64,000 nt of DNA. Origin: Escherichia coli. Its GTDB lineage: Bacteria; Pseudomonadota; Gammaproteobacteria; Enterobacterales; Enterobacteriaceae. Location of the stretch: the NCBI RefSeq assembly GCF_036507355.1, contig NZ_AP027877.1. One strand, 5' to 3'. Shown in pieces: positions 40,401 to 43,400 of this stretch. A program made the position numbers. Position 1 is the first letter of the stretch; each line of letters begins with the position of its first letter.

Positions 40401-43400
40401 ATCATCCAGTTTGATTACATTATAGCCACCATAGAAGGGGCCAAAAAACGAAACCTTCAATGCTGCAGTTTTAGTATCTCCAGTAAAGTATGCTTTACCT
40501 TCGCTCTCGCTCCATTTATTTTTCGTTGGATCGTATCCACGGTTAAGTACACGAATCCCTCCGTCGTTCCGTTTTCCATAAGTAGCGCTGACCTGTTCCA
40601 GATCACGTTCGAACCGGTTCTCGAGGCGAGCTATTTCATACCATTTTCCGAGGTAGCGGTTGGCGTCAAAATTTGTAATCGGCTGCACACCTTTAGGTGG
40701 TGTCGGGGCCTTACATGCTATAAGAGTGAAAGAGAGTGCAATGCCAGTCAACACAGGCCATAACTTCATAATAAATCCTGTACTTTTGATAGTTGAGAGT
40801 AAGTATGAAAGATAGATGATTACGACCGATCACTTAAAGAACTTTCATACTATATTAGGAATAGTCCATAACAGAAAAATTGTCAGTGATGACGCCAGAA
40901 AGGCAATTTATTCCGTGCACTACACAGTTTATGTGTTAATGAATTAGTCAAGGGGGAGAATATGATAAAAAAACCTGTGATTGGAATCAGCGGTTGTTTG
41001 GCCGGTTCTGCTGTTCGTTTTGATGGTGGTCACAAAAGAGCTGACTTTTTAATGGACAAATTAGTGGAATGGGTAACATTCAGACCAGTATGTCCGGAAA
41101 TGGCTATAGGGCTGCCAGTTCCGCGTCCTGCTCTACGTCTTGTGCGCTCGACGCAAGGAAATATACGGATGTGTTTCAGCCACGACCAGAATGAGGATGT
41201 GACAGAGAGAATGACAGAGTTTAGTCGTTCTTATATGGACAAATTAAAGGATGTATCGGGGTTTGTGGTTTGTGCTAAATCTCCCAGCTGTGGCATGGAG
41301 CGCGTGCGTGTCTATGATGAAAATGGTAATCGAGGTCGTAAAGATGGAGTGGGACTATTTACGAGTACTTTGATGGAAAAGTTTTCCTGGCTACCGGTTG
41401 AAGAGGATGGGCGATTACATGATCCAGTGCTTCGTGAGAATTTTGTTGAAAGAGTTTTTGCTTTGCATGAGCTCAATCACCTTTACAAGGAGAAATTATC
41501 AAGAAGAGAGTTATTAGCTTTTCATAGTCGTTATAAGCTTCAGTTGTTGGCGCATAGTCAGGCAGGCTATAAAGATATGGGACCATTTGTGGCTGCAATA
41601 CACGAGTGGGCGGACCTTGAATCATACTTTGAGGTGTATCGTGATAAGCTGATGGCGATTCTCAGAAAACCTGCATCACGTAAAAATCACACGAATGTGC
41701 TGATGCATATACAGGGGTATTTTAGTAACTACTTAAGTACACGCCAGCGTAAAGAGTTGAGCGAGGTTATACTTAACTATCGTTCTGGCACATTACCTCT
41801 TCTTGCGCCGTTGACTCTGCTGAAGCATTATCTGGGTGAGTATCCTAATGATTACTTGCTTACACAGAATTACTTCGATCCCTATCCGGACGAACTGGCT
41901 CTAAGACTGATGGTAAATTAATTGTATGCGATATCATCCAAAAGGATGAGTTCCTGCATGCAGGATATTTACAATCGTAAAAACTACACTATGATACCCA
42001 GAGTGTCAGTTTGTATAAAAACTCTGTTTACGCTGAAGAAACAATTGAGATGCAACTTAAAGTTGGTAAACATGCCAGTCAAAATATATAATATTATGAT
42101 TCCACGCAGCTATATATAATATAACAGATTGGTTTAATAATTTGTCTTTGTGAGTTAAATACATAATTTTATACTTGTGATGCAATGAAATTTTCCTTAT
42201 TGTTGAACTGGCGAATATTGATTTTCCACCTATACTTACCTGGTGTAACCCCAATGATATCAGGTGGATAATATGCCATACATATGTTCTATCATTTTGG
42301 TGTTGAACTCGTTTGATGTCCGAATTGGTAAAGAAGATATTTTGTTTAAAAAAGGAAGTGCTGTTCTCATTGATTACAATTTAAAAGATTTTTTTTCATC
42401 AAATATAGATCATGTAATGATCGTAGATGTTGAAGAGAAAACAGTTAATGATTTCTTTAAAAGCAACACACTCTCACCTTTTTCTGTAAGAAGGTTTTAT
42501 CCGGCATACTTGATGGTGGAATGTGAAGATTTTTCATTGTTAAAGAACTTGATTGCATGCTTGAATTGTGATGGCAGAACTGTGGATTTTGTTAGAAATC
42601 AAATATCACTTGCATGTCTTGCTATCTTATCTTCAGAGAAAATAGTGCAAAGTTTTTTATTTGGATGTCTTAATAGTTTAGGAAGTAAAGTTAAGGCTAT
42701 TATTCACACGGATATATCTGCAGCATGGAGACTTTGTGATATATCTTCAAGACTGTATCTGAGTGAAAGTCTGTTAAAAAGAAAATTAAAGCACGAAGGC
42801 TTATCATTTAGTAAGTTAATTCTTGAAGAGCGAATGGTGATGGCGGAAAGGTTATTAAGCTACAATTTATATTCTGTTGGAAAAGTTGCTGAGATATGCG
42901 GTTATGAAAACACGTCATATTTTGTGAGTGTTTTCAGAAGATATTTTGGTGTTCCTCCCCATCAATATTCATCAAGATTTTTTTTAGAAAAAGACATGAT
43001 GTAACATGATGCGTTTTAATGATTTTGTAATTTTCGTATTTGATAATTGTATGATGCTTTCAGCTACGCCAGAATAATCGCTGGCGTTTTTCTTTTTGAA
43101 TAGATGTTCAAGCCTTACGCTAATGTAACTTCTATACCTTTCCTCTTCGTTCCGAACCGTGTACACCATCCGTTATTTGCGGAGGTGAGGCTATGAAATC
43201 TATGGATAAGTTAACAACGGGCATTGCCTACGGCACCTCCGCAGGCAGTGCTGGCTACTGGTTTTTACAGTTGCTCGATAAAGTCACGCCCTCACAGTGG
43301 GCAGCAATAGGTGTGCTGGGTAGCCTGGTATTTGGCCTGCTGACGTACCTGACAAACCTTTATTTCAAGATTAAAGAAGATAAGCGCAAGGCTGCGAGAG

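Follow-up and report, generated by a model that had tools for sequence, protein, structure and literature searches.

RudS, the fusion of a TudS domain with a DUF1722 domain, was described and named as an eraser of 4-thiouridine (s4U) in tRNA by Jamontas et al. (2024, Nucleic Acids Res 52:10543; PMC11417400). It is the closest described counterpart of a gene, hereafter rudS, that lies among phage genes in the 64,000-nucleotide stretch of Escherichia coli DNA analysed here (hereafter the window; contig NZ_AP027877.1 of NCBI RefSeq assembly GCF_036507355.1). In E. coli, tRNA s4U fell 4.7- to 26-fold when any of six RudS orthologues was overexpressed, but not with stand-alone TudS or YbgA (PMC11417400). 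Mutation of the cluster cysteines abolished activity in most RudS homologues, and in RudS_KT of Pseudomonas putida both cluster-cysteine and catalytic-residue mutants were inactive, while the Y25F variant was as active as the wild type (PMC11417400). RudS_KT contains an iron–sulphur (Fe–S) cluster, the purified protein bound tRNA and desulfurated it in vitro, and its overexpression lessened the growth delay induced by ultraviolet A (UVA) light (PMC11417400). In the published model, the DUF1722 domain binds the anticodon arm of tRNA (PMC11417400). One of the six, the phage enzyme RudS_vir, is the product H3V29_gp66 of Escherichia phage 1H12, with Cys12, Cys44 and Cys110 as cluster ligands (Table 1 of PMC11417400). 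E. coli itself was said to lack TudS or RudS homologues (PMC11417400).

Our results suggest that the window gene very probably encodes RudS, i.e. a predicted tRNA s4U desulfidase in which a TudS domain is fused to a DUF1722 domain. Both domains are covered end to end by their Pfam models: PF04463 (E = 1.6e-39, model positions 1–141 of 141) and PF08349 (E = 2.2e-40, model positions 1–117 of 117). This confirms the DUF523/TudS assignment that a preliminary description of the sequence had made for the N-terminal half and the DUF1722 assignment that it had proposed for the C-terminal half. The three cysteine contexts quoted there are all present in the translation, i.e. GISGC (residues 8–12), PVCPE (residues 42–46) and VVCAKSPSCG (residues 102–111). 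Each RudS feature that can be checked in a sequence is found, since a single polypeptide carries both domains, the three ligand cysteines and the catalytic Glu/Arg/Ser/Ser set. The prophage setting proposed in the preliminary description also holds, with the gene lying in the interval from the antiterminator Q gene to the lysis genes (holin, endolysin and Rz). The TudS-like/DUF1722 enzyme acting on tRNA s4U that it envisaged has already been published as RudS, and the 93% identical 1H12 protein was tested; the proposed enzyme function is thus correct but already known, and the locus adds no new kind of enzyme.

Database names for this protein trail the literature. It matches phrog_3275 over its full length (755 bits), a family labelled ‘unknown function’ in PHROGs, while RefSeq uses either ‘YbgA family protein’ or ‘DUF523 and DUF1722 domain-containing protein’. 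The former label covers the C-terminal half only. The YbgA model NF007549 (NCBIfam) aligns with residues 160–315 at 190.8 bits, under its equivalog cut-off of 237, and the window protein is not a member of the YbgA equivalog. With two domains and 319 aa, it is not a TudS in the strict sense either.

Residue conservation is consistent with a RudS-type active site. A homologue search of 1.84 billion cluster representatives returned 6575 relatives at E ≤ 0.001, and 139 full-length sequences with 35–93% identity to the window protein were aligned. The cysteines of the window protein are residues 12, 44, 71, 104 and 110, among which C12 is kept in 138 of the 139 sequences, C44 in 137 and C110 in 136. 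By contrast, V/I/L predominates at position 71, and a cysteine occurs at position 104 in only 13 sequences, against K in 75 and M in 28. Since C71 and C104 are poorly conserved and C110 is kept, C110 is the predicted third cluster ligand beside C12 and C44. The earlier list of ligands (12, 44 and 104/109) therefore stands for the first two cysteines, while its third should read C110, ‘109’ being off by one; likewise, the conservation among homologues that had been proposed as a check is found for C12, C44 and C110 but not for C104. Cys104 was considered as the third ligand and ruled out on these counts, with K or M in most homologues; it lies four residues ahead of the SPSC motif and, by offset, corresponds to Lys98 of TudS and Met108 of RudS_KT. 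The predicted catalytic residues are E46, R55 and S107 (each kept in 138 sequences) and S109 (kept in 130).

Structural comparison points in the same direction. A profile of the homologues matches crystallized TudS (6z92; E = 4.2e-16), lining up the CLLG, CPE and SPSCG motifs, and the alignment pairs C12, C44 and C110 with the TudS motifs that hold the ligands listed as Cys10, Cys43 and Cys104 (PMC11417400). The AlphaFold2 model built on the alignment (mean predicted local distance difference test score 97, predicted template modelling score 0.93) has helices at residues 155–300. In a Foldseek search of the Protein Data Bank (PDB), its significant matches were TudS structures only (6z92, 6z93, 6z96 and 6zw9), with a target-normalized template modelling score (TM-score) of 0.70–0.75. 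No solved relative of the DUF1722 half was found by a profile search of solved structures or by Foldseek against the PDB. The counterparts of the tRNA-contact residues Arg24, Tyr25, Asn26, Ser243 and Arg244 of RudS_KT would be R19, F20, D21, S239 and R240, mapped by offset, with the C-terminal pair less certain. Position 19 is a near-invariant R, F/Y occupies position 20 in 121 of the 139 sequences, and 105 sequences have D and 33 have N at position 21. This set appears compatible with the published mutagenesis of RudS_KT.

The nearest characterized copy is that of phage 1H12 (gp66, YP_009909557.1). Both proteins have 319 aa, align without gaps with 298 of 319 residues identical (93%) and have Cys12, Cys44 and Cys110 at identical positions; nucleotide identity is 92.6%, and the region upstream of rudS, towards blc, is ∼96% identical. 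The gene order is also shared: Q, blc on the opposite strand, rudS, an AraC-like gene, holin, endolysin and Rz. None of the 21 substitutions falls on C12, R19, F20, D21, C44, E46, R55, S107, S109, C110, S239 or R240. However, the 1H12 copy resides in an intact lambda-like siphovirus (Jouyvirus), whereas the window copy resides in a deleted remnant at argW whose relatives are contractile-tailed.

We also compared the window protein with other described relatives. RudS_KT (PP_0741 of P. putida KT2440) has the same two domains and the same catalytic set, its Cys17, Cys49, Cys114, Glu51, Arg60, Ser111 and Ser113 corresponding to C12, C44, C110, E46, R55, S107 and S109 at a fixed offset from the ligand cysteines. 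RudS_ST (STM1389, ORF319 of Salmonella LT2) shares the two domains, the catalytic set, the length of 319 aa and Cys12, Cys44 and Cys110. In the chromosome, these genes belong to, or adjoin, light-responsive units under MerR/LitR control (PMC11417400), whereas the phage block contains no such regulator. Stand-alone TudS (DUF523; 6z92, 6z93 and 6z96), a [4Fe–4S] desulfidase of thiouracil and 4-thiouridine monophosphate (4-thio-UMP), has the same N-terminal fold (TM-score 0.70–0.75, 26–27% identity) and the same CLLG, CPE and SPSCG motifs. It is, however, a single domain of ∼150–170 aa whose substrates are free thiouracil compounds and which does not reduce the s4U content of tRNA in vivo, whereas the window protein adds DUF1722 and has, by offset, Cys104 in place of Lys98. 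YbgA of E. coli K-12 (b0707) is a stand-alone DUF1722 protein whose model matches the C-terminal half of the window protein with a score under the cut-off, but it lacks a desulfidase domain and leaves tRNA s4U unchanged.

The closest homologues outside E. coli are chromosomal genes of Citrobacter, Serratia, Enterobacter and Klebsiella with ∼70–77% identity. In Citrobacter braakii, the homologue (76% identity) ends a run of clustered co-directional genes that encode a SnoaL-like protein, a short-chain dehydrogenase/reductase, an amine oxidase, a DUF1365 protein, a cyclopropane fatty acid synthase, a DUF2878 protein, an unknown protein and a DUF3833 protein; the phage block contains none of these partners. 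Derivation of the phage Blc protein from the DUF3833 gene that precedes rudS in Citrobacter was considered and dropped, with no similarity by BLASTP (E = 1.2). Another homologue (74% identity; Salmonella and metagenome contigs) lies between ttcA, which adjoins dbpA, and a DUF1367 gene, followed by usp, porin and pyruvate:ferredoxin oxidoreductase genes. The ttcA/dbpA locus is the chromosomal site of the Rac prophage in K-12. This homologue looks like another prophage-remnant copy, distinct from STM1389 of Salmonella pathogenicity island 2.

By homology with the described enzymes, the window protein would be a monomeric [4Fe–4S] enzyme that converts s4U at tRNA position 8 to uridine. C12, C44 and C110 would hold the cluster, the fourth iron, free of a cysteine ligand, would bind the thiocarbonyl sulphur of s4U, and E46, S107, S109 and R55 would complete a non-redox hydrolytic desulfuration of the TudS type. 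The helical DUF1722 domain would grip the anticodon arm, so that whole tRNA is preferred over a free thiouracil compound. With s4U erased, the near-UV chromophore responsible for the U8–C13 cross-link would be gone, and UVA-triggered growth delay would be lessened. In an intact phage, rudS would be read from the Q-modified late transcript, possibly with a promoter of its own in lysogens; in the window remnant, any expression would have to come from a local promoter or from Q supplied in trans. We infer both this mode of expression and any benefit to host or phage.

The position of rudS is constant among different prophages. It is a phage moron gene that, together with blc and the AraC-like gene (Table 1), occupies the slot between Q and the lysis genes, as marked by an accessory block between Q and holin, a deviant base composition and occurrence on several phage backbones. 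The G+C content is 43.6% in blc, 43.3% in rudS and 31.8% in the AraC-like gene, against ∼48% in Q, holin and endolysin. The same slot holds the stx genes in Shiga toxin (Stx) phages. The block order recurs in 1H12 (lambda-like), in the isolated phage IdasGreatGrand, in a contractile-tail prophage of strain Yu5 and, truncated, in the BL21 prophage, i.e. on at least three prophage backbones, with blc at the equivalent position in each; the rudS of IdasGreatGrand has 99.7% nucleotide identity. At ≥80% identity, the AraC-like gene occurs in the same 12 phage records as rudS, and relatives with 52% identity occur in other coliphages. PatE, PsrA and PsrB of enterohaemorrhagic E. coli are prophage-borne AraC-like activators of acid resistance (review). 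The AraC-like neighbour may be of the PatE/PsrA/PsrB kind. On the other side of the block, the genes 5′ of Q are, in order, those for a YbcN/NinB-like protein, NinE, an HNH/DUF1364 protein, RusA and YlcG.

Prophage decay in the window was read by comparison with two related loci. Chromosomal sequence (evgS, evgA, emrK, emrY and the end of dsdA) extends as far as ∼35525, where dsdA is cut, and phage homology begins at 38039, with ybcN; no complete E. coli genome covers ≥80% of this left junction (35300–38300). Deletion joints at 50135 and ∼51102–51114 mark the loss of the genes between the capsid and tail-sheath genes and of most tail genes. Immunity (repressor), replication and excision genes are absent from the remnant at 38039–55854, and Rfam and tRNA scans of the window found tRNA-Arg(CCT) only. 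Because these three modules are missing, the window prophage is, as read from its gene content, a deleted and non-inducible remnant at argW.

This bears on how rudS could be expressed. Loss of the early region leaves Q without its normal upstream transcription, and in the deleted prophage normal late control therefore cannot apply. The ‘late control’ of the preliminary description was reasonable from the Q-to-lysis position, which was its whole basis, and does not carry over to this remnant. A consensus scan returned 13 promoter-like sites (11.5 ± 3.5 in shuffled sequence) and two terminator-like sites (2.7 ± 1.8 in shuffled sequence); a weak promoter-like match at 40793–40820 is among sites whose counts are at the shuffled level. 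Assignment of a rudS promoter and of the late promoter pR′ was given up for this reason, and only the hairpin past the Q stop, which is kept in 1H12, is worth naming.

The statement that E. coli lacks RudS needs qualification, because 1063 of 5426 complete E. coli genomes (about one fifth) carry rudS at ≥80% coverage. The statement describes K-12 correctly and, in functional terms, BL21, but does not extend to the species as a whole. With matches of any coverage, the number rises to 1135 genomes, 595 of these at ≥99% identity, and 991 complete genomes have the 3.1-kb gene block at ≥80% coverage. RudS appears to have no natural source in E. coli other than the prophage block. In BL21 (NZ_CP010816.1), the Q-blc-rudS arrangement is found with hokD and rem 5′ of Q, and an IS3 element cuts rudS after 147 nt. 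BL21(DE3), a BL21 derivative, was the expression host of the RudS study (PMC11417400). This host probably carries a dead rudS remnant. A literature search found no paper that mentions RudS together with prophages. What is new here is modest: the prevalence in E. coli, the constant Q-to-lysis moron slot on at least three backbones and the deleted state of the window prophage.

Between the window and 1H12 alleles, dS (synonymous divergence) is 0.30 and dN (nonsynonymous divergence) is 0.031, which gives a dN/dS of 0.10; by half, dN/dS is 0.16 for TudS and 0.07 for DUF1722. These low ratios in both halves show that both RudS domains are under purifying selection. The activity of the window allele itself would follow by analogy from the 93% identical RudS_vir.

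Several points weigh against a tRNA s4U eraser that protects its host from UVA: (i) the activity of the exact window allele is a prediction from its relatives; (ii) RudS_vir is the weaker performer and the most atypical of the six orthologues, with tRNA desulfuration that is low for its high protein level and with the shortest lag on free 4-thiouracil (PMC11417400), so the substrate balance of the phage enzyme may differ from that of the chromosomal enzymes; (iii) the gene block contains no MerR/LitR regulator, so the UVA-protection role may not carry over; (iv) promoter- and terminator-like matches around rudS are no commoner than in shuffled sequence; and (v) rudS expression in the window is putative, because the early region of this prophage is gone.

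Point (ii) could be explained if phage RudS served mainly in a TudS-like salvage of free 4-thiouracil, 4-thiouridine or 4-thio-UMP, e.g. from host tRNA degraded in lytic growth, with intact tRNA as a side substrate. The short 4-thiouracil lag of RudS_vir was seen in a uracil auxotroph (PMC11417400), and the active-site residues of the window protein are identical to those of TudS. However, no RudS, RudS_vir included, rescued and sustained that auxotroph as TudS did, none used 2-thiouracil, and tRNA s4U was lowered by RudS_vir but not by stand-alone TudS (PMC11417400). In addition, the stronger purifying selection on the DUF1722 half would be unexpected if tRNA binding were unimportant. We therefore regard salvage as an unlikely main role. 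Less likely still, and in our view improbable, is that rudS is an inert passenger of a decaying prophage, i.e. an intact but unexpressed frame with no effect on the cell; the loss of the early region leaves room for this, but the frame is intact, all catalytic residues are kept, dN/dS is 0.10, roughly every fifth complete E. coli genome has the gene, with many near-identical copies, and it is also carried by isolated viable phages. Action on another thiolated molecule during infection, such as s2C32 (2-thiocytidine) or s2U34 (2-thiouridine) derivatives in tRNA, as counter-defence or takeover, can be dismissed as barely credible: the site by the lysis genes means late expression but is nothing direct, s2C levels were unchanged on RudS induction and 2-thiouracil was unused (PMC11417400), and neither RudS, Blc, the AraC-like protein nor two neighbouring open reading frames (ORFs) matched any PADLOC model of anti-phage defence.

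With RudS as a tRNA s4U desulfidase, its place in a temperate phage raises the question of what such a phage gains from erasing a host tRNA modification. One speculative answer, which we put forward tentatively and consider doubtful, is that the block of Blc, RudS and the YdeO-like AraC regulator is a lysogenic-conversion stress module spread by lambdoid phages through about a fifth of E. coli or, alternatively, that erasure of s4U late in infection keeps translation running in light. Neither idea was found in the literature searched. If the stress module exists, its carriers, unlike K-12, could erase tRNA s4U and would differ in near-UV growth delay and stringent response. More generally, if rudS is expressed, E. 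coli strains would differ in tRNA s4U and in UVA response according to the prophages they carry. This has practical weight, since most work on s4U biology was done in K-12 and B strains, where no working rudS copy exists.

Table 1. Features of the prophage remnant and of the rudS locus (positions in the window)
Feature	Position	Strand	Remarks
IS3-family insertion sequence (IS) element	∼36403–37637		orfB 36425–37237 (−), orfA 37294–37578 (−); at left junction of remnant
Antiterminator Q gene	39697–40089	+	phrog_79 (anti-termination protein Q-like), E = 1.3e-51; RefSeq homologue ‘antiterminator Q family protein’
Terminator-like GC hairpin and T run	40188–40211	+	∼100 nt past Q stop; candidate tR′-type late-leader terminator; kept in 1H12; scan at shuffled background (weak)
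Blc lipocalin lipoprotein homologue	40245–40769	−	Divergent from rudS; NF007786, 312 bits (cut-off 267); phrog_2809
Shine–Dalgarno-like purine run	40951–40958	+	AGGGGGAG; 3 nt 5′ of ATG; read from sequence
rudS coding sequence	40962–41921	+	ATG 40962, stop 41919–41921; 319 aa, no interruption or frameshift
Catalytic TudS domain (2-thiouracil desulfurase, formerly DUF523)	40980–41408	+	Residues 7–149; PF04463
DUF1722 domain	41535–41888	+	Residues 192–309; PF08349; all-helical
AraC-family regulator, YdeO/GadX-like	42264–43004	+	3′ of rudS; best NCBIfam model YdeO, 127 bits, under cut-off
Terminator-like hairpin and T run	43066–43087	+	Between AraC-like gene and holin gene; consensus scan, weak alone
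Lysis genes: holin EssD, endolysin RrrD, Rz spanin	43193–44345	+	ORFs; RefSeq names from near-identical region of strain Yu5
intS	54461–55654	−	End of remnant
tRNA-Arg(CCT)	55780–55854		argW site; right end of remnant

Two further genes of the remnant deserve mention. An ORF just past Rz (44333–44758, plus strand) belongs to phrog_5039 and is named a DUF6979 family protein in strain Yu5. An O-acetyltransferase-like gene (53196–54320, minus strand) that adjoins intS matches phrog_3333 (E = 2.4e-86) and, more weakly, an O-antigen acetylase; it probably represents a second accessory gene carried by the remnant.

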